Shown here: piece by piece, positions 7,812 to 52,870 of the stretch
How the letters are laid out: each line of letters begins with the position of its first letter
How positions within the stretch are numbered: the first letter of the stretch is position 1
NCBI RefSeq assembly: GCF_013315695.1
Contig: NZ_CP054353.1
From: Escherichia coli
GTDB lineage: Bacteria > Pseudomonadota > Gammaproteobacteria > Enterobacterales > Enterobacteriaceae
DNA: 64,000 bases
Reading direction: 5' to 3' (one strand)
The notes under the pieces: generated by a model
What the model was told of the DNA's origin: nothing
Database searches by the model: none
What the model saw: the letters and a program-made list of their open reading frames with translations, nothing else
Position numbers and translations under genes: made by a program

Positions 7812-7980
7812 TAAAATATAAAAAAAACAAACAGTAAGCCGGTTTTTCCTGCGACCTTTTCCTGGCTTGCCGGTCGGAGGATGAGTCTCCTGTGTCAGGG
7901 CTGGCACATCTGCAATGCGTCGTGTTGTTGTCCGGTGTACGTCACAATTTTCTTAACCTGAAGTGACGAGGAACCGGAAA

Positions 7981-8715
7981 ATGTCTGACAACACCATCCC
8001 TGAATATCTGCAACCCGCGCTGGCACAACTGGAAAAGGCCAGAGCCGCCCATCTTGAGAACGCCCGCCTGATGGATGAGACCGTCACGGCCATTGAACGG
8101 GCAGAGCAGGAAAAAAATGCGCTGGCGCAGGCCGACGGAAACGACGCTGACGACTGGCGCACGGCCTTTCGTGCAGCCGGTGGTGTCCTGAGCGATGAGC
8201 TGAAACAGCGCCACATTGAGCGCGTGGCACGCCGGGAGCTGGTACAGGAATATGACAATCTGGCCGTGGTGCTGAATTTTGAACGCGAACGCCTGAAAGG
8301 GGCGTGTGACAGCACGGCCACCGCCTACCGGAAGGCACATCATCACCTTCTGAGTCTGTATGCAGAGCATGAGCTGGAACACGCCCTGAATGAAACCTGT
8401 GAGGCGCTTGTCCGGGCAATGCATCTGAGCATCCTGGTACAGGAAAATCCGCTCGCCAACACCACCGGCCATCAGGGCTACATCTCACCGGAAAAGGCTG
8501 TCATGCAGCAGGTGAAATCATCGCTGGAACAGAAAATAAAACAGATGCAAATCAGCCTCAGCGGTGAGCCGGTTCTCCGGCTGGCCGGACTGTCAGCGGC
8601 AACACTCCCGCACATGGATTATGAGGTGGCAGGCACACCGGCGCAGCGCAAGGTGTGGCAGGACAAAATAGACCAGCAGGGAGCAGAGCTGAAGGCCAGA
8701 GGACTGCTGTCATGA
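7981..8715 (+). CDS. sid: Sid-like capsid size-determination (external scaffold) protein, 244 aa
   Basis: Position first in the sid-delta-psu block; length equals P4 Sid; stop overlaps the delta start (ATGA). Confidence 0.6.
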   Translation: MSDNTIPEYLQPALAQLEKARAAHLENARLMDETVTAIERAEQEKNALAQADGNDADDWRTAFRAAGGVLSDELKQRHIERVARRELVQEYDNLAVVLNFERERLKGACDSTATAYRKAHHHLLSLYAEHELEHALNETCEALVRAMHLSILVQENPLANTTGHQGYISPEKAVMQQVKSSLEQKIKQMQISLSGEPVLRLAGLSAATLPHMDYEVAGTPAQRKVWQDKIDQQGAELKARGLLS

Positions 8716-13429: not shown

Positions 13430-13474
13430 TGGTGGAGCTGGCGGGAGTTGAACCCGCGTCCGAAATTCCTACAT
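13430..13474. repeat. Internal att core: 45-bp copy of the ssrA 3' end (junction between P4-like element and P2-like prophage)
   Basis: tggtggagctggcgggagttgaacccgcgtccgaaattcctacat is identical to 48642-48686. Confidence 0.9.
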
Positions 13475-13589: not shown

Positions 13590-14240
13590 TTATCCGCTGC
13601 TTGAGTTGAAATCTGTGGGTTTACGGAGATTAGATCTTATGGTTTTTTCAGCGATACGAATAGTCGAAAATTTATGCAGGTTCATCAGTGCTATACAAAT
13701 CCCAAGTGCAAAAAAGTAGCTGGACATTCCTAATCTTTGCATATCAGTAAGTTTATTAATTTTCTCTAAAATATGTTGGGTTACTAATCCTTCGTATACA
13801 AAAGGTATGGAAGTTATAAAACCGCCAATAAAATAGAATGTTAAGCTTATCAGCTTTATAGATTTTCTATATATCCAAAAGCGATATCTTTTTTTTGTCC
13901 ATTTAAATATTTGTTTTTCACTACTAATAGAAATTAGTTTTTGACACTTGCTATAGTTATCAATGTCATTAACTGGATCGTTAACACCTAAAAGAATCTC
14001 TCTCTGTTCTGGAGTTAGGTTCTTATCTTTTGTTATTGCAGCAATACCATAATTATATGCAACTTTCTTGATTTTGGGATCTTCAGTATTCTTATATAGA
14101 TTGTATGCAAACTCGCTAATGTTTTTGCGCGAGTTGAAAATCTTATCTTTGGGGAAAACCCAGCCGGATCTTACCGCGAGCATCTGTATGATCGGGGTAA
14201 TTATCGCGACAGAATACTTAATTATCTCGTTTATGTTCAT
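13590..14240 (-). CDS. Hypothetical membrane protein (216 aa), cargo gene between attL and int
   Basis: AT-rich; soluble N-terminal ~125 aa followed by two hydrophobic helices; 14 bp downstream of int in the same orientation. Confidence 0.6.
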   Translation of the reverse strand: MNINEIIKYSVAIITPIIQMLAVRSGWVFPKDKIFNSRKNISEFAYNLYKNTEDPKIKKVAYNYGIAAITKDKNLTPEQREILLGVNDPVNDIDNYSKCQKLISISSEKQIFKWTKKRYRFWIYRKSIKLISLTFYFIGGFITSIPFVYEGLVTQHILEKINKLTDMQRLGMSSYFFALGICIALMNLHKFSTIRIAEKTIRSNLRKPTDFNSSSG

Positions 14241-14254
14241 GATCCATTGTTTAC

Positions 14255-15271
14255 TTAAATTAAGTTATAAAGAGGGTTTTTTGTTACTGCATCCTCCAGG
14301 TGGTCTGGAGAGAAGTGTGCATAAATCATCGTCATTTTAATATCTGAGTGCCCTAAAATATCACGTAAAACGAGTATGTTCCCACCGTTCATCATAAAAT
14401 GGCTGGCAAATGTATGGCGCAGGACGTGGGTGCATTGGCCTTCCGGTAGTTCAATACCGGCCCGTTTTACCGCCCGTTCAAAGGCTTTTCTGCATGGTGT
14501 GAATAATTTCCCTCGGTTTTTGGGTAGCTCGTTGTACAGATCCTGAGATATCGGTACGGTACGGTTTTTTTTACCCTTGGTCTTTGTATAGGTAATCCGG
14601 TATTTCGATAGTTGATGGCCCTGCAGGTTTTCAGCTTCACTCCAACGAGCACCGGTTGCTAGGCATATTTTTGCAATCATTAGCAGACTGGGGCTTTGAG
14701 AATCAGCACAGGCATCCAGCAGACGTTTAATTTCCTCCGGGGTTAGGAACGCCAGTTCACCCTCCGTAATTTTAAATGTTGGAAGCCCGGCAAGCGGGTT
14801 GGGGGCTGACCAGTGGCCCAGCTTTTTCAGTGTACCAAAAACAGATGATAGGTTGCGCTGTTCAAGGTTTACCGTGCGGGGCTTAACGGGTGACATGAAC
14901 GAGCCGTCTTCATTTTGGACCTCCCCCTTTAATCTGGCTTCCCGATATTTTGTGAAATCACCTGCTGTCAGCTCAGAGGCGATGGGATCGCCTAGACCAT
15001 TACAGATAATTCTAAGTTTCGCCATCAGGCGTTTGGGGTCTGCGAGTGTTTGACCATATAGGGAATACCACTGCTCAATCACTTCTGATAATCGCCGCCG
15101 ATCTTCCTTCTCACCAAGCCATGGCTTTTTGTTTACTTCGTTCATGGTGAAGTTTTCGAATGCTATGGCTTCGCCTTTCGTGGCAAATTGCTTACGCACG
15201 CGCTTGCCATTGCGTCCATTGGGATAGCACTCACACAACCATTTTCCGTTCGGCTGTTTTCTGATGGTCAT
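14255..15271 (-). CDS. int: P2-type tyrosine integrase (338 aa)
   Basis: Catalytic region motifs (...ARWSE...HVLRHTFASHF...LGHSDIKMTMIYAH); position next to att and repressor. Confidence 0.9.
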   Translation of the reverse strand: MTIRKQPNGKWLCECYPNGRNGKRVRKQFATKGEAIAFENFTMNEVNKKPWLGEKEDRRRLSEVIEQWYSLYGQTLADPKRLMAKLRIICNGLGDPIASELTAGDFTKYREARLKGEVQNEDGSFMSPVKPRTVNLEQRNLSSVFGTLKKLGHWSAPNPLAGLPTFKITEGELAFLTPEEIKRLLDACADSQSPSLLMIAKICLATGARWSEAENLQGHQLSKYRITYTKTKGKKNRTVPISQDLYNELPKNRGKLFTPCRKAFERAVKRAGIELPEGQCTHVLRHTFASHFMMNGGNILVLRDILGHSDIKMTMIYAHFSPDHLEDAVTKNPLYNLI

Positions 15272-15272
15272 A

Positions 15273-15905
15273 TCAAAGGCTCTTAATGATTTTCAGTGCA
15301 CGGCCTACTACCTCAATGTCATCCAGGCCACACTCAAACGATGAATCATCCTGATGCACTACTAATCTGTTTCCCGGGAGTCGAGTCAATTTAACAATGC
15401 TTTTTATCCCGTCGATATCGACTAACCACATACCATTCACTGGTGGTGTTTGGTTGCGATCTATTAAATAAGAATCACCAGAAGTAGTCACCAGCAGTAG
15501 GTTGCTTGAGTCTGAGGGGAGTATGCTGCTATCAATGATTGCTTTTCCAGCATCGACCAATAAACCACCGTTGAGAGTCGCCTTGTCAATTTCAGGAGAT
15601 ACTAGTTCAGAAAGAGGTACAACCTTGCTGGAGTTCACGGAATTGATATTTTTTTTAGGTTCAATGTTTGGACCTGGCTCCCCCTGTCCGGTGGTTAGCC
15701 ACAGTAAAGAAACTCCTGTTTCCAAGGCGCACTGAATCACCCACTCTGCAGGAAAACTATCTCTTAAGTATCTGTTTGCCATGGTGCTTTTTGATGCGCC
15801 TAAGTGATCGCAAAGTTGCTGTCTGGACTTGAAATCATAGGCTGCCATTAGTCTATGGATAGCTTCTCTTCCCCCTGTATTCTCTCCAGCCTTTACCTGT
15901 ATCAT
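15273..15905 (-). CDS. CI-type immunity repressor (210 aa, HTH N-terminus)
   Basis: Divergent from the apl/cox-like gene, adjacent to int; size closer to phage 186 CI than P2 C. Confidence 0.7.
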   Translation of the reverse strand: MIQVKAGENTGGREAIHRLMAAYDFKSRQQLCDHLGASKSTMANRYLRDSFPAEWVIQCALETGVSLLWLTTGQGEPGPNIEPKKNINSVNSSKVVPLSELVSPEIDKATLNGGLLVDAGKAIIDSSILPSDSSNLLLVTTSGDSYLIDRNQTPPVNGMWLVDIDGIKSIVKLTRLPGNRLVVHQDDSSFECGLDDIEVVGRALKIIKSL

Positions 15906-16024: not shown

Positions 16025-16267
16025 ATGAGCACTGATATTTCAATTCGTGTACCAAAAGAGATGGCTACGCCTGCAGAGTTCGCGGAATGGGAAGGTATCT
16101 CCCGCGGCTCCGTGTATCAAAAAATTCACCATGGTCAGCTTGCTAAATACATGGTCAAGAAAGAAAAAAATAAAGGCCGCGTAAACCTTCGTTATCTGAT
16201 GTACAAAACTGATCAGGTCCGTGAATCCCTCGGTCATTCCAACTTCCGCGTCATTGTTGGTAAGTAA
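16025..16267 (+). CDS. Apl/Cox-like excisionase and early regulator (80 aa)
   Basis: First gene of the rightward early operon divergent from the repressor. Confidence 0.6.
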   Translation: MSTDISIRVPKEMATPAEFAEWEGISRGSVYQKIHHGQLAKYMVKKEKNKGRVNLRYLMYKTDQVRESLGHSNFRVIVGK

Positions 16268-16299: not shown

Positions 16300-16809
16300 A
16301 TGTTTGATTACAAGATTTCCAAACATCCGCATTTCGATGAAGCCTGTAGGGCTTTTGCACTGCGTCACAACCTGGTGCAACTGGCAGAACGTGCAGGCAT
16401 GAATGTACAGATTCTGCGGAACAAGCTGAACCCAGCTCAGCCTCATTTATTAACCGCACCAGAAATCTGGCTGCTTACCGATCTGACTGAAGATTCAACG
16501 CTGGTAGATGGTTTTCTGGCACAGATTCATTGTCTGCCATGTGTACCGATTAATGAGGTGGCAAAAGAGAAACTGCCACATTACGTCATGAGTGCAACCG
16601 CAGAGATCGGGCGTGTTGCTGCAGGTGCGGTATCTGGCGATGTAAAAACCTGTGCCGGTCGTCGTGATGCTATCAGCAGCATTAACTCTGTAACACGACT
16701 GATGGCGCTGGCGGCTGTTTCATTGCAGGCCCGTTTACAGGCTAATCCTGCGATGGCGAGTGCAGTTGATACCGTGACTGGCCTCGGTGCTTCATTCGGT
16801 TTGCTGTGA
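16300..16809 (+). CDS. CII-like lysogeny establishment regulator (169 aa)
   Basis: Second early gene; length equals phage 186 CII. Confidence 0.55.
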
Positions 16810-18100: not shown

Positions 18101-18399
18101 CAAGGGCAGTGCGTATCCATCAATTAAAAATTGCACCTAAGTATTTCAACGCTGTGGTTGCAGGTCAAAAGACGGCTGAACTTCGTAAAGACGATCGTGG
18201 CTATAAAGTTGGTGATGTTCTTTCTCTTTGCGAATGGAAGCATGGCGTATTTACGGGTAGGGAATGGGCCGCTGTTATCTCTCATGTGCTTCCGGTTAAT
18301 GACGTCATGGCAGTTTCAGAACAATGGGTGATGCTATCAATTCGCCCATTAACTCCATTAGAAGCTTTGGGATATGTTATTGCAGGAGGTGCTGTATGA
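18097..18399 (+). CDS. Hypothetical early protein (100 aa)
   Basis: ATG overlapping the previous stop (ATGA), GGAGG upstream. Confidence 0.5.
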
Positions 18400-19253
18400 G
18401 CACCATCCTGAAATGGGCAGGTAATAAAACTGCCATTATGTCCGAACTGAAAAAACATCTTCCTGCTGGCCCGCGACTGGTTGAACCTTTCGCGGGTTCC
18501 TGTGCTGTGATGATGGAGACGGATTACCCCAGCTATCTTGTTGCGGATATTAATCCTGATTTAATCAACCTCTATAAAAAGGTTGCTGCTGATTGTGAAT
18601 CGTTTATATCTCGCGCCAGAGTTTTATTTGAGATCGCAAACAGGGAGGTGGCTTATTACAACATAAGGCAGGAGTTTAATTACTCAACTGAAATTACTGA
18701 TTTCATGAAAGCGGTATATTTCCTGTATCTAAATCGTCACGGTTACCGTGGTTTATGTCGCTATAACAAGAGCGGGCATTTCAACATTCCCTACGGTAAT
18801 TATAAAAATCCGTATTTCCCTGAAAAAGAAATTCGCGCATTTGCAGAAAAAGCCCAGCGAGCAACGTTTATCTGCGCCAGCTTTGATGAAACGCTGGCGA
18901 TGTTGAAAGCGGGGGATGTGGTGTATTGCGATCCGCCGTATGACGGTACGTTTTCCGGCTATCACACTGACGGCTTCACTGAAGATGACCAGTATCACCT
19001 GGCATCTGTTCTTGAACATCGGTCATCAGAAGGACATCCGGTCATTGTTTCTAACAGTGACACATCCCTGATCCGTTCGCTGTATCGCAATTTTACTCAC
19101 CACTACATCAAGGCAAAACGCAGCATCGGTGTGGCAGCTGGCGAGGGTAAATCAGCAACAGAAATCATTGCTGTTTCCGGGCCGCGCTGCTGGGTGGGAT
19201 TTGATTATTCGCGTGGCGTGGATAGTTCTGCCGTGTACGGAGTACGTGCATGA
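18396..19253 (+). CDS. DNA adenine methyltransferase (Dam-like, 285 aa)
   Basis: N-terminal SAM-binding region (LKWAGNK...EPFAGS) and DPPY catalytic motif. Confidence 0.85.
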
Positions 19254-21664
19254 GTCATGCCGATATGAACAACTGCTGCGGCTTTAACGAAGCTGCCGCA
19301 TCGTTCTCATGGAACAGCCCGAAAAAGGCCATTAACCCTTATCTGGACCCGGCGGAAGTTGCGCCGGTTTCTACGCTTTCAAACCTGATCACTCTGTACG
19401 CTGCCGATAACGAGCAGGAACAGCTGCGCCGTGAGGCGCTGAGTGATCAGGTCTGGGAGCGTTATTTCTTTAATGAATCCCGTGATCCTGTCCAGCGCGA
19501 AATGGAGCAGGATAAGCTCATTAGTCGGGCAAAGCTGGCGCATGAGCAGCAGCGTTTTAACCCGGACATGGTCATTCTGGCAGACGTCAGCGCCCAGCCC
19601 TCCCATATCAGCAAGCCGCTGATGCAACGTATTGAATACTTCAGCAGCCTTGGCAGGCCAAAGGCTTATTCCCGCTATTTGCGTGAGACGATTAAGCCAT
19701 GTCTGGAACGGCTGGAGCATGTACGCGACAGTCAGCTATCCACATCTTTTCGCTTTATGGCAAGCCATGAAGGGCTGGACGGCCTGCTGATTCTGCCTGA
19801 AATGAGTCAGGATCAGGTGAAACGCCTGTCCACCCTTGTTGCTGCGCATATGAGCATGTGCCTTGATGCAGCTTGTGGCGATTTGTATGCCACCGATGAC
19901 GTTAAGCCAGAAGAAATCCGCAAGACATGGGAAAAGGTGGCAGCAGAAACCCTGCGACTGGATGTCATACCGCCTGCGTTTGAGCAACTCCGCCGGAAAA
20001 GAAACCGCCGTAAACCCGTGCCATATGAACTCATTCCGGGTTCGCTGGCGCGTATGTTGTGCGCCGATTGGTGGTACCGGAAATTATGGAAGATGCGTTG
20101 CGAATGGCGGGAAGAGCAGTTGCGTGCTGTTTGCCTGGTCAGCAAAAAAGCATCTCCCTATGTCAGCTATGAAGCCGTGATGCATAAACGTGAGCAGCGC
20201 CGTAAGTCGCTGGAGTTTTTCCGTTCTCATGAACTGGTGAACGAAGACGGCGACACGCTGGACATGGAGGATGTGGTAAACGCCAGCAGCAGCAACCCTG
20301 CGCATCGCCGCAATGAGATGATGGCCTGTGTTAAAGGTCTGGAGCTTATCGCGGAAATGCGCGGTGACTGCGCCGTTTTCTACACCATCACCTGTCCGTC
20401 ACGTTTCCATTCCACGCTAAATAACGGCAGGCCCAACCCGACCTGGACAAATACGACGGTAAGACAAAGCAGTGATTATCTGGTCGGCATGTTTGCTGCA
20501 TTTCGTAAGGCGATGCACAAAGCCGGATTGCGCTGGTATGGCGTGCGGGTGGCTGAGCCGCATCATGACGGTACAGTTCACTGGCACCTGTTGTGTTTTA
20601 TGCGCAAAAAAGATCGCCGCACCATTACTGCTTTGTTGCGTAAGTTTGCCATTCGTGAAGACCGCGAGGAGCTGGGTAATAACACGGGACCACGCTTTAA
20701 GTCTGAGCTGATAAACCCGCGCAAAGGTACGCCAACAAGCTACATCGCGAAATACATCAGTAAGAACATTGACGGGCGTGGTCTGGCTGGCGAGATCAGC
20801 AAGGAAACGGGTAAATCCCTGCGTGATAACGCTGAATACGTTAATGCCTGGGCGTCTCTGCATCGTGTTCAGCAATTCCGCTTCTTTGGCATTCCGGGGC
20901 GTCAGGCTTACCGTGAACTGCGATTGCTGGCTGGTCAGGCGGCAAGGCAACAGGGGGACAAAAAAGCAGGTGCGCCGGTACTGGATAACCCGCGCCTTGA
21001 TGCAATCCTGGCTGCTGCTGATGCTGGTTGTTTTGCCACCTACATCATGAAGCAGGGCGGCGTACTGGTTCCCCGCAAATATCACCTCATCAGAACTGCT
21101 TATGAAATCAACGAAGAACCGACCGCATATGGCGATCACGGTATTCGTATTTATGGCATCTGGTCACCCATTGCAGAGGGCAAGATCTGCACTCATGCGG
21201 TGAAGTGGAAAATGGTTCGTAAGGCCGTTGACGTTCAGGAGGCGGCAGCCGACCAGGGCGCTTGCGCCCCTTGGACTCGTGGCAATAACTGTCCCCTTGC
21301 TGAAAATTTGTACCAACAAGGGAAAGACAAATCAGCTGATGGAGATACCAGAACGGATATCACCCGCATGGATGACAAGGAGTTGCACGATTACCTGCAC
21401 AGTATGAGCAAAAAAGAGCGCCGGGAACTGGCAGCAAGGTTACGCCTGGTGAAACCGAAACGGCGTAAAGACTACAAACAGCGAATTACAGATCATCAGC
21501 GACAGCAGCTCGTGTATGAACTGAAGTCCAGGGGATTTGATGGCAGCGAGAAAGAGGTCGATTTACTGCTTCGCGGCGGCAGTATTCCGTCAGGAGCAGG
21601 CCTGCGTATCTTCTATCGGAACCAGCGTTTGCAGGAAGATGATAAGTGGCGAAACCTGTATTAA
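19250..21664 (+). CDS. Replication initiation protein A (rolling-circle nicking endonuclease), 804 aa
   Basis: Size and position of P2/186 gene A at the end of the early operon. Confidence 0.85.
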
Positions 21665-21756
21665 TTACGCGGGTTAACAATTCGTGCTCTTAATAATACC
21701 AGGCATATCAGGCCGATGAACGTAAAAAAACGTTTTACATCAGTAAGATTATTATA

Positions 21757-21776
21757 TACTGTAAATATAAACAGTA
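21757..21776. promoter_or_regulatory. LexA (SOS) box upstream of the tum/dinI-like genes
   Basis: tactgtaaatataaacagta fits TACTGT-N8-ACAGTA; an additional acagta half-site follows. Confidence 0.7.
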
Positions 21777-21816
21777 GTTATTTATACAGTATTTCTTTGG
21801 TGTTATAGGAGGAAAG

Positions 21817-22005
21817 ATGCAGGACTATTTTTTGGAGTCTTTGAAGCTCCAGCGCATTGATTTTTTTCTTAAGCTTGTAGCGGCTAGTGAGTGTAGTGAT
21901 GAAGAGAAGGGGCTGGCTTTGCAGTGGGTTTCTGAACTGACAGATGAACTTATGGCAAAAATCAGAACCCACGAATACAACCGCTCAATGGATGTCATCA
22001 GTTGA
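21817..22005 (+). CDS. Small SOS-controlled protein (62 aa), possible Tum-like antirepressor
   Basis: First ORF downstream of the LexA box, aggagg RBS. Confidence 0.4.
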   Translation: MQDYFLESLKLQRIDFFLKLVAASECSDEEKGLALQWVSELTDELMAKIRTHEYNRSMDVIS

Positions 22006-22015
22006 GGTGACTTTT

Positions 22016-22249
22016 ATGCGCATTGAAATAATGATCGATAAAGAGCAGAAGATTAGCCAGTCTACCCTGGACGCCTTTGAATCCGAGCTTTACCGCAATC
22101 TGCGCCCCCTGTATCCCAAAACGGTAATTCGTATCCGTAAAGGTAGCTCTAACGGTGTGGAACTGACCGGACTGCAACTGGACGAAGAAAGGAAACAAGT
22201 AATGAAAATTATGCAGAAGGTGTGGGAAGACGACAGCTGGCTGCATTAA
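22016..22249 (+). CDS. DinI-family protein (77 aa)
   Basis: MRIEIMIDKE...ELYRNL...VWEDDSW resembles E. coli DinI (MRIEVTIAK...WESADDW). Confidence 0.75.
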   Translation: MRIEIMIDKEQKISQSTLDAFESELYRNLRPLYPKTVIRIRKGSSNGVELTGLQLDEERKQVMKIMQKVWEDDSWLH

Positions 22250-22519
22250 GAAACGTTGCTGGCGTCTGAACTTGCTTCTGGCGTCAGCAAGGTTGAACAA
22301 CGAGCTATGCGAGGCGTTAGTGTCAATTTGTTACCTTAACCACTATATATGCCAGGAAATTAACAGTTCTTAAGAAACCGCTTGCATGATCGAGCGCATT
22401 GAACTTAAGTTTAAGTAACGAAATCAACAGATGATATTGTTGTCTAAATTTTAAAGATAATCTGTTGAGGTTGTAGGCGTCGGAGTGTAGACTTCCGCGC
22501 CATGTGAAAAGGGGGAGTT

Positions 22520-22735
22520 ATGTCAAGCATCGCCGCATTTAGCCTGGGTAACCCAGTTGAACGTCTGGCAAGGGTTCTTAAAGAGAACCAGGACAAACTC
22601 AATCTTAGTAAAGATGGTTTTGTGTCCGTAGACTTGTCTAACAAAAGAGCAATGGATGCCATCAAGGCACAGATGGATAAGCTTGAAGGCATCAAAACGA
22701 GCACTGTAAAAGAGAAAACTAATAGAACCAGATAA
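22520..22735 (+). CDS. Hypothetical small protein (71 aa), first gene of a two-gene cargo module
   Basis: Strong RBS (gggggag); stop overlaps the next start (ATAATGG). Confidence 0.5.
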   Translation: MSSIAAFSLGNPVERLARVLKENQDKLNLSKDGFVSVDLSNKRAMDAIKAQMDKLEGIKTSTVKEKTNRTR

Positions 22736-23577
22736 TGGCAACATTACTTTTAGCAGTGATTTTGGTTAGTGGTTTTATTTATGTAAACCTATCACTTTCA
22801 ACAAGATACCGATATAAGCGTTCCAACGGCTGGGACGCTTATTTTTTTGTGGCTGCCTGGGGTATCGTTTTTTTTCTCCTTGGCGGTTTTTTCACCTTTA
22901 TTTTGAACGTCAGCGGAGGGTTTCGTTGGCTGGCTAATGCCTTGAATCTAACACCTGACAGTTTTAACGGCATGTTGTCTTCATCGAAAGACAAACTTCA
23001 AAGAATAAATGAAATCAAACAGATAGCATGGGTTATGATTTCAATTGTCCTCGCTGCGATTTCAGGTTTTGGAAATAAGTTACGCACATCACGTGGAGAT
23101 CGTCGCTGGGATGCCTTAGCTAAAGCTGTGGGTAATAACGCTTTCGAATCATTACTCATGGAAGCGTCCGCAAGACAGTTTCCGATCATAGCAACTCTGT
23201 CGTCTCGCAAAATCTATGTTGGTCTTGTTACTTGTCCGGCGTTAGAAAACGGGCTTTCAGAACACCTTGAACTTCTCCCGATGTTAAGCGGATATAGGGA
23301 TAAAGATGATCTAACGATTAGTATCACGACTAACTATCACCAACATTATCTTGATAGTGGTGTGATAAGTGGAATGTCTCGGCTTAATATCGAAGATTTC
23401 CGTGTGCTCATACCAAAAGATGAGGTTGAAACAATTTCGTTTTTTGATACTGAGACATATAACAAATTTAAAGAAAATGAAGCCAGGGATAGAAAGAACT
23501 GTCGAAAGATTGGTAGTAAAAGTGCATCTTCGCGCAGCAAGCGTGCAGCAGATGCTGAGTCAAATGATCGTGCATGA
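22735..23577 (+). CDS. Hypothetical membrane protein (280 aa: ~3 N-terminal TM helices plus soluble C-terminal domain)
   Basis: Translationally coupled to the 71-aa ORF; hydrophobic N-terminus, charged C-terminus. Confidence 0.6.
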   Translation: MATLLLAVILVSGFIYVNLSLSTRYRYKRSNGWDAYFFVAAWGIVFFLLGGFFTFILNVSGGFRWLANALNLTPDSFNGMLSSSKDKLQRINEIKQIAWVMISIVLAAISGFGNKLRTSRGDRRWDALAKAVGNNAFESLLMEASARQFPIIATLSSRKIYVGLVTCPALENGLSEHLELLPMLSGYRDKDDLTISITTNYHQHYLDSGVISGMSRLNIEDFRVLIPKDEVETISFFDTETYNKFKENEARDRKNCRKIGSKSASSRSKRAADAESNDRA

Positions 23578-23694
23578 CTATGCTGCATGAGATCGCATGA
23601 TCGTTTGAGGATCGTTTTTGCTAAGGCCCGCCAGAACTGGCGGGCTTTTGCGTAGATCATGCACCTGCATGAAAACTACTACATAAAGCGGGCA

Positions 23695-23713
23695 GGCGTG
23701 GCGGGGATACGAG
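23695..23713. other. Putative cos site of the P2/186-like prophage
   Basis: ggcgtggcggggatacgag shares the GGCG(A/T)GGCGGGG core with the P4-like cos at 10022. Confidence 0.5.
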
Positions 23714-23903
23714 CGCGCGTTGGGATGATAATGTCCTTTCGAATGTAAGGCAGAGTATGTTATTTTTACTCTTGGTTGCTTTGTATAGTTCGATAAAATT
23801 ATTATATATTTAGTATGTGATATATTGATGTCGATGGTGACTGGTTGTGGATGAAGCTAAAAACAAAAAGGCATGATGCGATTTATTGAAGGAATGATGA
23901 TTA

Positions 23904-24320
23904 ATGATTGATGTCATTGGTAATAAATACGTTGTTGCTTTAATTTTTCCATTGTTGATGATTCTATGTGGGGCTTTTGTAAAAAAACTTGCCAGATCCT
24001 CTGGTTGGCAAAAGAGTGATTTTTACTTTGGGAATGAGTTGATATTATCGACAATTGGTGCATCATTGTTGAATTTATATGATTTGACTAAAACTGTTCA
24101 AACAGTAACCACGGTTAACCAAGTGGTTAATCAGTACATTGGAACTACTAGCTTTCTTGCCTTCTCTCTTTTTGTATTACTGGGGATCATGTCTTTTCAT
24201 CAAGATTGGGAAGGGCGAACAGGAAATCCAAAAGGTCAAATTTGGGTTTTATGTATTGGGTGTAATTTAGTCGGCATATTATTTTTTGCTTCCTTTGTTT
24301 TGTGGATTAAGGGTGTGTAA
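23904..24320 (+). CDS. Hypothetical small integral membrane protein (138 aa, ~4 TM helices)
   Basis: AT-rich; four hydrophobic segments; immediately followed by the TIR-like gene. Confidence 0.6.
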   Translation: MIDVIGNKYVVALIFPLLMILCGAFVKKLARSSGWQKSDFYFGNELILSTIGASLLNLYDLTKTVQTVTTVNQVVNQYIGTTSFLAFSLFVLLGIMSFHQDWEGRTGNPKGQIWVLCIGCNLVGILFFASFVLWIKGV

Positions 24321-24923
24321 ATGAAAAAAAATACTCTTTATATTATTTCAATTGCATTGGCTGTTGTTGGGTTTCTTATGGCTCTTATTCCACGGCTCCC
24401 ATATTTATTTCAAGGAGTTAATGATGAGATTATCATCTCCGTTATTGGATTATCTTTTGCCTATTCTGGCCTGAGTTTGATTGTGTTAATGAAATTAAGG
24501 GAAAGAAGACTAAAGGCCGTTAAAAAAGGAAAGCAAATATTTCTAATGTATCCCGTACAAGAAAAAGATAAGGCCCGTCAAATAACTTGTAAGCTTAATG
24601 AGTTAGGTTTTGATGTATGGTTTGATGAAAATAACATATTGCCCGGGCAGATTATTGAAAAGCAAATTAATCAGGCTATAGACAATAGCGCTGCGGCTAT
24701 ATTGCTTCTGTCTAATGAAGATATGGAGTCATATATAAGAAAGGAGGTAGAGGGCTTTCTCCGTAAAGCTACGGTAAAAGATGAAAACTATGTTCCTATA
24801 ATTCCTGTGATAATTGGTGATGCTGAATTGCCTGCGATGCTCAAAAACATCAAGTCTGTAAACTATGAGGATGAAAAATTAATTGATAAGCTCAATTTGT
24901 CATTGAAGTCCATTCTTGGTTGA
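24321..24923 (+). CDS. Membrane-anchored TIR-like domain protein (200 aa: 2 TM helices plus TIR-like domain)
   Basis: C-terminal region follows the TIR pattern: KQIFLMY...LNELGFDVWFDENNILPGQII...INQAIDNSAAAILLLSNEDMESYIRKEV...YVPIIPVII. Confidence 0.6.
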   Translation: MKKNTLYIISIALAVVGFLMALIPRLPYLFQGVNDEIIISVIGLSFAYSGLSLIVLMKLRERRLKAVKKGKQIFLMYPVQEKDKARQITCKLNELGFDVWFDENNILPGQIIEKQINQAIDNSAAAILLLSNEDMESYIRKEVEGFLRKATVKDENYVPIIPVIIGDAELPAMLKNIKSVNYEDEKLIDKLNLSLKSILG

Positions 24924-48641: not shown

Positions 48642-48686
48642 TGGTGGAGCTGGCGGGAGTTGAACCCGCGTCCGAAATTCCTACAT
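48642..48686. repeat. attR core: 3' end of ssrA, identical to 13430-13474
   Basis: 45-bp exact direct repeat. Confidence 0.9.
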
Positions 48687-49004
48687 CCTCGGTACTACAT
48701 GCTTAGTCAGTCTTTACATTCGCTTGCCAGCTGCGGACGGACACGCCACTAACAAACTAGCCTGATTAAGTTTTAACGCTTCAACCCCAGGCAGGGCTTC
48801 CACGCGATCTCTTTTGGGTTTGACCTCTCTTGATCCCCGTCCTAAGAGCGGAGGCTAGGGAGAGAGGGCTCTAAGCAGGTTATTAAGCTGCTAAAGCGTA
48901 GTTTTCGTCGTTTGCGACTATTTTTTGCGGCTTTTTACGAGGCCAACCGCCCCTCGGCATGCACCTTGGGTTTCGCAAATCCCGTCGAATCCAGAATCAG
49001 CCCC
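48642..49004 (-). ncRNA. ssrA: tmRNA (SsrA RNA), 363 nt
   Basis: Reverse complement begins GGGGCTGATTCTGGATTCGACGGG and ends GGGTTCAACTCCCGCCAGCTCCACCA; tag ORF region (GCAAACGACGAAAACTACGCTTTAGCAGCTTAA) present. Confidence 0.97.
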
Positions 49005-52810: not shown

Positions 52811-52870
52811 TCCTGTATGAAAAACCATTACTGTTATTGTGTACAGTATAAACTGGTTTTATATACAGTA
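52811..52870 (-). promoter_or_regulatory. recN promoter region with LexA boxes
   Basis: rc reads tactgtatataaaaccagtt, tactgtacacaataacagta, taatggtttttcatacagga, all CTGT-N8-ACAG-like. Confidence 0.7.

Follow-up and report, generated by a model that had tools for sequence, protein, structure and literature searches.

Would a P2-like prophage lodged in the ssrA gene of Escherichia coli respond to DNA damage and, if so, through which of the two small genes that follow its replication gene A? The window, that is, the whole 64,000-nucleotide stretch of DNA analysed here, holds such a prophage of ~35 kb, flanked by a 45-bp direct repeat whose two copies match exactly. The host is E. coli, since E. 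coli chromosomes match its recN-smpB flank at 100% identity, and the tmRNA gene (ssrA) occupies 48642-49004 on the minus strand. The integration site and the genes of the lysogeny switch are laid out as follows.

13430-13474, no strand: attL, a copy of the 45-bp repeat, identical to the ssrA 3' end
14255-15271, minus strand: integrase, 338 aa, whose position beside CI matches Fels-2, 186 and PSP3
15273-15905, minus strand: immunity repressor CI of the 186 type, 210 aa, on which the antirepressor presumably acts
16025-16267, plus strand: Apl/Cox-like excisionase-repressor, 80 aa, 30% identical to 186 Apl (E = 3e-13)
16300-16809, plus strand: CII-like lysogeny activator, 169 aa (Pfam Phage_CP76, 4e-42)
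19250-21664, plus strand: replication gene A homologue, 804 aa (Pfam Phage_GPA, 6.8e-127), immediately upstream of the module
48642-48686, no strand: attR, the other copy of the 45-bp repeat, in which the intact ssrA has its 3' end

Two further genes of this region fall outside the switch. A 216-aa ORF between attL and int (13590-14240, minus strand) gave no PADLOC hit, and a Dam-type DNA adenine methylase gene lies at 18324-19253, upstream of gene A; the positional counterpart of the latter in the Fels-2 record, just upstream of gene A, is called retron Ec67-like.

The first-pass annotation had proposed a 210-aa CI-like repressor and a 169-aa CII-like protein, and both assignments stood. The repressor carries the two Pfam domains of 186 CI, Phage_CI_repr (5.5e-31) and Phage_CI_C (9.2e-28), as its sole Pfam domains; it is 32% identical to 186 CI and matches 186 CI structures (2FJR at 3.7e-27). 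Its C-terminal domain is of the 186 CI type, and the S24 peptidase domain, the mark of lambda-type induction by repressor autocleavage, was absent from CI in the Pfam search. The CII-like protein is 68% identical to 186 CII. The segment directly past gene A has the following features.

21734-21739, plus strand: putative -35 hexamer TTTACA of a p95-like promoter, picked by eye, 17 nt upstream of TACTGT
21757-21762, plus strand: putative -10 hexamer TACTGT, inside the LexA box, by analogy with the annotated -10 of 186 p95
21757-21776, plus strand: LexA (SOS) box TACTGTAAATATAAACAGTA, with 2 mismatches to the consensus TACTGTATATATATACAGTA
21778-21791, plus strand: conserved TTATTTATACAGTA element of the 5' UTR, common to the window, Fels-2, SEN8 and MLG42
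21817-22005, plus strand: antirepressor gene of the tumA type, 62 aa, whose product has its homologue in the N-terminal part of 186 Tum
22016-22249, plus strand: tumB/DinI-like gene, 77 aa, preceded by GAGGTG
22252-22294, plus strand: stable hairpin without a U tract, after the dinI-like stop (MFE -27.3 kcal/mol, z = -1.97)

A near-consensus LexA box ahead of the module, as claimed at first pass, was borne out. It begins 93 nt past the stop of the gene A homologue (gpA ends at 21664, the box starts at 21757) and is the sole match to the LexA consensus at ≤3 mismatches in the 64-kb window, with a match in 0 of 100 dinucleotide-preserving shuffles. The window has only one other CTGT-N8-ACAG, at 52831; this belongs to the host recN promoter, as one of its three known LexA boxes, and is an internal positive control for the box search. 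The recN promoter itself (52812-52870, minus strand) carries the boxes TACTGTATATAAAACCAGTT, TACTGTACACAATAACAGTA and TAATGGTTTTTCATACAGGA. By hand count, the first of these has 4 mismatches to the consensus, compared with 2 for the prophage box, and no recN box matched at ≤3.

We infer the two promoter hexamers by eye and by analogy with phage 186, whose p95 promoter reads TTCACA-18-TACTGT where the window has TTTACA-17-TACTGT. The LexA box starts at the -10 in both, overlapping TACTGT as annotated in the 186 record. TTTACA and the LexA box are conserved in Fels-2, SEN8 and MLG42; the 3' end of the box reads CAGTA in the window and CAGTG in most relatives. A sigma-70 consensus scan of this region found no promoter at the module; we do not take this to mean that none exists, since the established p95 of 186 escapes the same scan.

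Just 3' of the LexA box, the TTATTTATACAGTA element resembles a LexA half-site and is present in all Fels-2-type promoters compared. We weighed its conserved TATACAG sequence as a second LexA box and discarded the idea on spacing, which is 12 where 10 is required, with no CTG-N10-CAG fit. The hairpin that follows the dinI-like gene is possibly a partial terminator or a transcript-end structure, and in 186 the corresponding spot is taken by the partial terminator t95a. An Rfam search of 21600-22600 returned no known RNA.

As first annotated, a 62-aa ORF and a DinI-family gene come directly after gene A. They lie in different frames, 10 nt apart, and do not form one 146-aa polypeptide. The 62-aa ORF, with AGGAGG ahead of it at 21807-21812, gave no alignment with 186 Tum or with PSP3 TumA in pairwise BLASTP. 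A profile built from 31 diverse members of its family, searched among 1168 six-frame ORFs, matched 186 Tum at residues 5-48 (E = 3.3e-10, 36 bits). PSP3 TumA was not reached by the same profile (E = 2.1) and thus has no similarity to the window protein that either BLASTP or the family profile detects. The 62-aa protein also matches PHROG 698 (3.6e-38), and searches of Pfam and the Protein Data Bank returned no match to it.

Members of this family are small proteins of ~60-70 aa; they form 482 clusters when grouped at 90% identity, and 66 representatives remain at the 50% level. When 1.8 billion representative proteins were searched exhaustively with phmmer, all relatives recovered were of ~60-70 aa, and fused, Tum-length ones were absent. 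The window protein is identical to Fels-2 STM2728 at 61 of its 62 residues (98% identical to Fels-2 TumA, 89% to SEN8 TumA). AlphaFold2 predicts TumA to be a two-helix hairpin, with helices at residues 2-23 and 28-59 and pLDDT of 66-79; run on a TumA-linker-CI fusion with a paired alignment, it gave a pTM of 0.40, in an output without coordinates or PAE. The NCBI PGAP label for the 62-aa gene is 'hypothetical protein', and the switch is therefore invisible in routine annotation, since this is its key gene.

The second ORF was recognized by domain searches. It covers the Pfam DinI profile (PF06183) over positions 1-63 of 63 (1.9e-22; 79.8 bits, the cut-off being 24.2), is 43% identical to 186 Tum across Tum residues 71-145 (E = 4e-25), and matches the E. 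coli DinI structure 1GHH (8.8e-6) in an alignment that spans residues 1-75. It is 77% identical to PSP3 TumB and identical at 76 of 77 residues to the Fels-2 DinI-family protein (STM2726.1), and its acidic C-terminal WEDDSW motif is conserved. A longer, 101-aa reading of this gene, from 21944, is unsupported by the alignment with E. coli DinI or by the Fels-2 and PSP3 annotations, and we set it aside.

Because the two ORFs match the N-terminal and C-terminal parts of Tum, the module reads as a split tum, in the tumA/tumB arrangement known from PSP3 and Fels-2. We consider it highly probable that a P2-like prophage of the Fels-2/186 type, sitting in E. coli ssrA, has its SOS operon at positions 21734-22294, where a LexA-repressed antirepressor and a DinI-like protein are encoded; induction itself is a prediction here. 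The first-pass annotation had spoken of a tum-like module and had placed the prophage in the 186 branch. Both parts of Tum are indeed matched, in a split form and not as the fused 146-aa Tum. The switch is of the 186 type, in a prophage that is Fels-2-like by its TumA rather than 186 itself (its gpA is 35% identical to the 186 A protein). The likeness of the 62-aa ORF to 186 Tum, which was to be sought by alignment, emerged from the family profile and not from BLASTP.

On this model, host LexA bound to the near-consensus box, over the p95-like -10, would keep the operon off in the lysogen. DNA damage would activate RecA and, through it, LexA self-cleavage, and the operon would be transcribed. 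TumA, as a 62-aa two-helix protein, would bind CI non-covalently and block its binding to the operators; the early lytic promoter would then fire, and induction would follow. The DinI-family product would most likely tune RecA filaments and the SOS response, and would be dispensable for antirepression. The sequence features, the homologies and the extent of their conservation come directly from the present analysis, and LexA dependence and the requirement for the 62-aa gene are carried over, by analogy, from published close relatives. For the window prophage, we infer direct binding of TumA to CI, the N-terminal domain of CI as its target, and the role of the DinI-like protein.

The relative that bears most directly on the 62-aa gene is DuoHS, a P2-like prophage of E. 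coli HS described in the 'Phollow' study. An in-frame delta-tum deletion abolished its mitomycin C induction, and lexA(Ind-), separately, did the same (PMC12055606, PMC11195241). Because the published deletion primer, ATAGGAGGAAAGATG-TGA-GGTGACTTTTATGCGCATTG, has exact matches in the window at 21805 and 22003, at both boundaries of the ORF, the gene called 'tum' in DuoHS is the 62-aa ORF. The deletion removes this ORF only and leaves the dinI-like gene in place. The link between DuoHS and the window is drawn from the published primers together with the cross-reference of the Fels-2 record to EcHS_A0919, the DuoHS tum.

We found the module in 1124 of 5426 complete E. coli genomes. Across 14 divergent lineages, in which TumA identity falls to 17-50%, a near-consensus LexA box stands upstream of the TumA gene in all 14, at 33-65 nt from the start codon, and it is kept while the flanking DNA diverges. 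The box is likewise present at 79 of 80 IMG/VR loci. At the exception, L065 (IMG/VR UViG 2634166506_000002), a same-strand group II intron (7884-8109, Rfam RF02005, 186.6 bits) separates the LexA box from the tumA start and shifts the box ~1.97 kb upstream.

Five of the 14 loci, from four lineages (L090/L091, L094, L096 and L098/L099), have a TumA homologue past gene A and a LexA box, with no dinI gene. These lineages fit the small protein being an autonomous antirepressor. The loci with a lone TumA homologue (L090, L091, L094, L096, L098 and L099) are P2/HP1-like prophages. At several of the dinI-less loci the 3' end of the TumA gene overlaps a convergent ogr/delta gene, and several of the lone homologues end in a glycine-rich ...GGxxG..LQ tail, which the window protein does not have.

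Across the 80 IMG/VR loci TumA is at least 97% identical, and the partner CIs range from 35% to 99% identity overall, with 48 distinct CI sequences among 77 loci. The partner CIs are 59-100% identical in the N-terminal domain and mostly ~30% identical in the C-terminal domain, and some have a duplicated HTH; at L006, L014, L018, L033, L039 and other loci, the same TumA allele accompanies a CI of 313-321 aa with a duplicated N-terminal HTH, as in PSP3 CI. This pairing of one TumA allele with many CI types, in 80 viral contigs, argues for broad compatibility.

Among 11 non-redundant lineages, pairwise identity of TumA was correlated with that of the CI N-terminal domain (Mantel r = 0.53, p = 0.005) and uncorrelated with that of the CI C-terminal domain (r = 0.04), CII (0.08) and gpA (0.02). 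Without the close relatives of Fels-2, the correlation with the N-terminal domain falls to r = 0.34 (p = 0.057), and L096 is a counter-example, with a CI N-terminal domain that is 75% identical beside a TumA that is only 35% identical. With moderate confidence only, these patterns suggest the DNA-binding domain of CI as the site of TumA action. A bolder proposal, which we regard as tentative and rather doubtful, is that TumA is a portable, broad-specificity antirepressor that recognizes the conserved N-terminal domain of 186-type CIs, the DinI half being an optional add-on fused only in the 186 lineage. If true, heteroimmune Fels-2-like prophages that share one cell could cross-induce.

The model faces its most serious challenge at the level of the whole prophage. 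The module may be intact in a prophage that is not productively inducible, either because it is defective elsewhere or because a SEN8-type CI is insensitive to a Fels-2-type TumA, in which case the operon would be an SOS-regulated accessory locus. The presence of a tum module does not guarantee productive induction: the Salmonella prophage BTP5 carries tum, and no infectious phage was recovered from it with or without mitomycin C (PMC7067206). The window prophage is also a mosaic, pairing a SEN8-like CI (N-terminal domain 100%, C-terminal domain 88% identical to SEN8 CI) with a Fels-2-like TumA, and its late genes were judged by ORF lengths and DNA identity only. Against such a failure, all regulatory and replication ORFs are full length, 87% of the late region aligns with sequenced P2-like phages at ~97% identity, and the att repeats are intact; a mismatch between TumA and CI sits poorly with the one TumA allele found beside many CI types in the 80 viral contigs. 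We therefore hold a non-inducible prophage to be unlikely, though with a real chance of being right.

Much less probable is the idea that the DinI-like protein drives induction, for example through RecA, with the 62-aa ORF as an accessory or a non-functional leader peptide. Of the two halves, the DinI-like one is better conserved and alone is recognized by databases, and the separate, DinI-like truncated Tum made by 186 is said to modulate induction. The DuoHS deletion speaks directly against this idea, in that induction was abolished with the dinI-like gene intact. The four lineages that retain the LexA box and TumA without a dinI gene point the same way, as do the Gifsy phages, in which non-polar dinI deletions were without effect (PMC3121763). 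According to Lemire et al. 2011 (PMC3121763), the antirepressor activity of PSP3 sits in the upstream gene.

That the LexA box is a fortuitous or non-functional match, the operon being controlled otherwise, such as by read-through from gene A in lytic growth, is the least probable reading of all: the operon does follow gene A directly and in the same orientation, and the consensus scan did find no promoter, but that scan misses the established p95 too, no shuffle reproduced the box, all 14 divergent lineages keep it amid diverging flanks, and lexA(Ind-) blocked induction of DuoHS.

We thus retain the LexA-repressed antirepressor operon as the preferred account. The module predicts that the window prophage, and prophages in about one-fifth of complete E. 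coli genomes, would respond to DNA-damaging antibiotics by LexA-dependent antirepression and not by repressor cleavage. The arrangement is already known, having been described and tested in close relatives; the locus is ordinary in this respect and adds little beyond a correct annotation. Mildly new are the conservation of the box, the dinI-less loci, the one TumA allele with many CI types and the covariation with the CI N-terminal domain. The TumA/CI pairing, this covariation and the dinI-less lineages lead to a testable idea, cross-induction among heteroimmune P2-like prophages.

Downstream of the module, between the dinI-like gene and the portal gene Q, lie four cargo ORFs (22520-24923). 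In P2-like phages this slot varies in content and is known to house anti-phage systems. The ORFs encode proteins of 71 aa (phrog_9843) and 280 aa (phrog_3630), a 138-aa membrane protein (phrog_25392) and a 200-aa protein that has a TIR domain (Pfam TIR_2, 3.6e-17) and, at its N terminus, a membrane segment. In the cargo region PADLOC gave no more than weak TIR hits and assigned no system. The cargo genes differ from those of Fels-2 and DuoHS.

The switch compares with known systems as follows. P2 resembles the window prophage in genome architecture and late genes, whereas the window prophage carries a 186-type switch. P2 has a small C repressor and, to our knowledge, neither CII nor tum. It is not SOS-inducible (PMC5322425). 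[quoted passage not shown] The Gifsy phages are lambdoid, their repressor belongs to another family, and the gene order is reversed, with dinI first.

PSP3 comes nearer. In its record the two genes are named tumA, with the note 'similar to 5' end 186 tum; UV induction of prophage', and tumB. Like the window, it has the split form: an upstream antirepressor gene of ~60 aa is followed by a DinI homologue of 77 aa, and a LexA box precedes the pair. The PSP3 genes are in the same frame and 3 nt apart, unlike the pair in the window, and PSP3 CI has 286 aa and a duplicated HTH domain. Lemire et al. 2011 (PMC3121763) describe tum as split in two in Fels-2 and PSP3, the upstream gene of PSP3 being the antirepressor, and Tum as looking like an antirepressor fused to DinI; an antirepressor that inactivates CI and is needed for SOS induction is reported there for PSP3 and 186.

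The gene order, gene A followed by the module on the same strand, is common to the window, 186, PSP3 and Fels-2. Phage 186, invoked at first pass for its LexA-repressed Tum at this position, does have, by its record, the p95-tum operon at the same place past gene A, with a CI of the same family as in the window. Its Tum is a single chain of 146 aa that includes a linker of 22 residues, where the window form is split, yet a GTG start inside the gene, annotated in the record, gives 186 the DinI-like part as a separate product too. Downstream, 186 has orf97, which the window lacks.

Closest of all is Fels-2 of Salmonella LT2, which integrates at ssrA as the window prophage does. Fels-2 (STM2728/STM2726.1) and DuoHS share with the window the full succession of gene A, LexA box, 62-aa gene and DinI-family gene. 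The repressor is where the window prophage departs from Fels-2: its CI is 82% identical to Fels-2 CI in the N-terminal domain and 51% in the C-terminal domain, and is SEN8-like instead, so that a Fels-2-type antirepressor module here accompanies a SEN8-type repressor.
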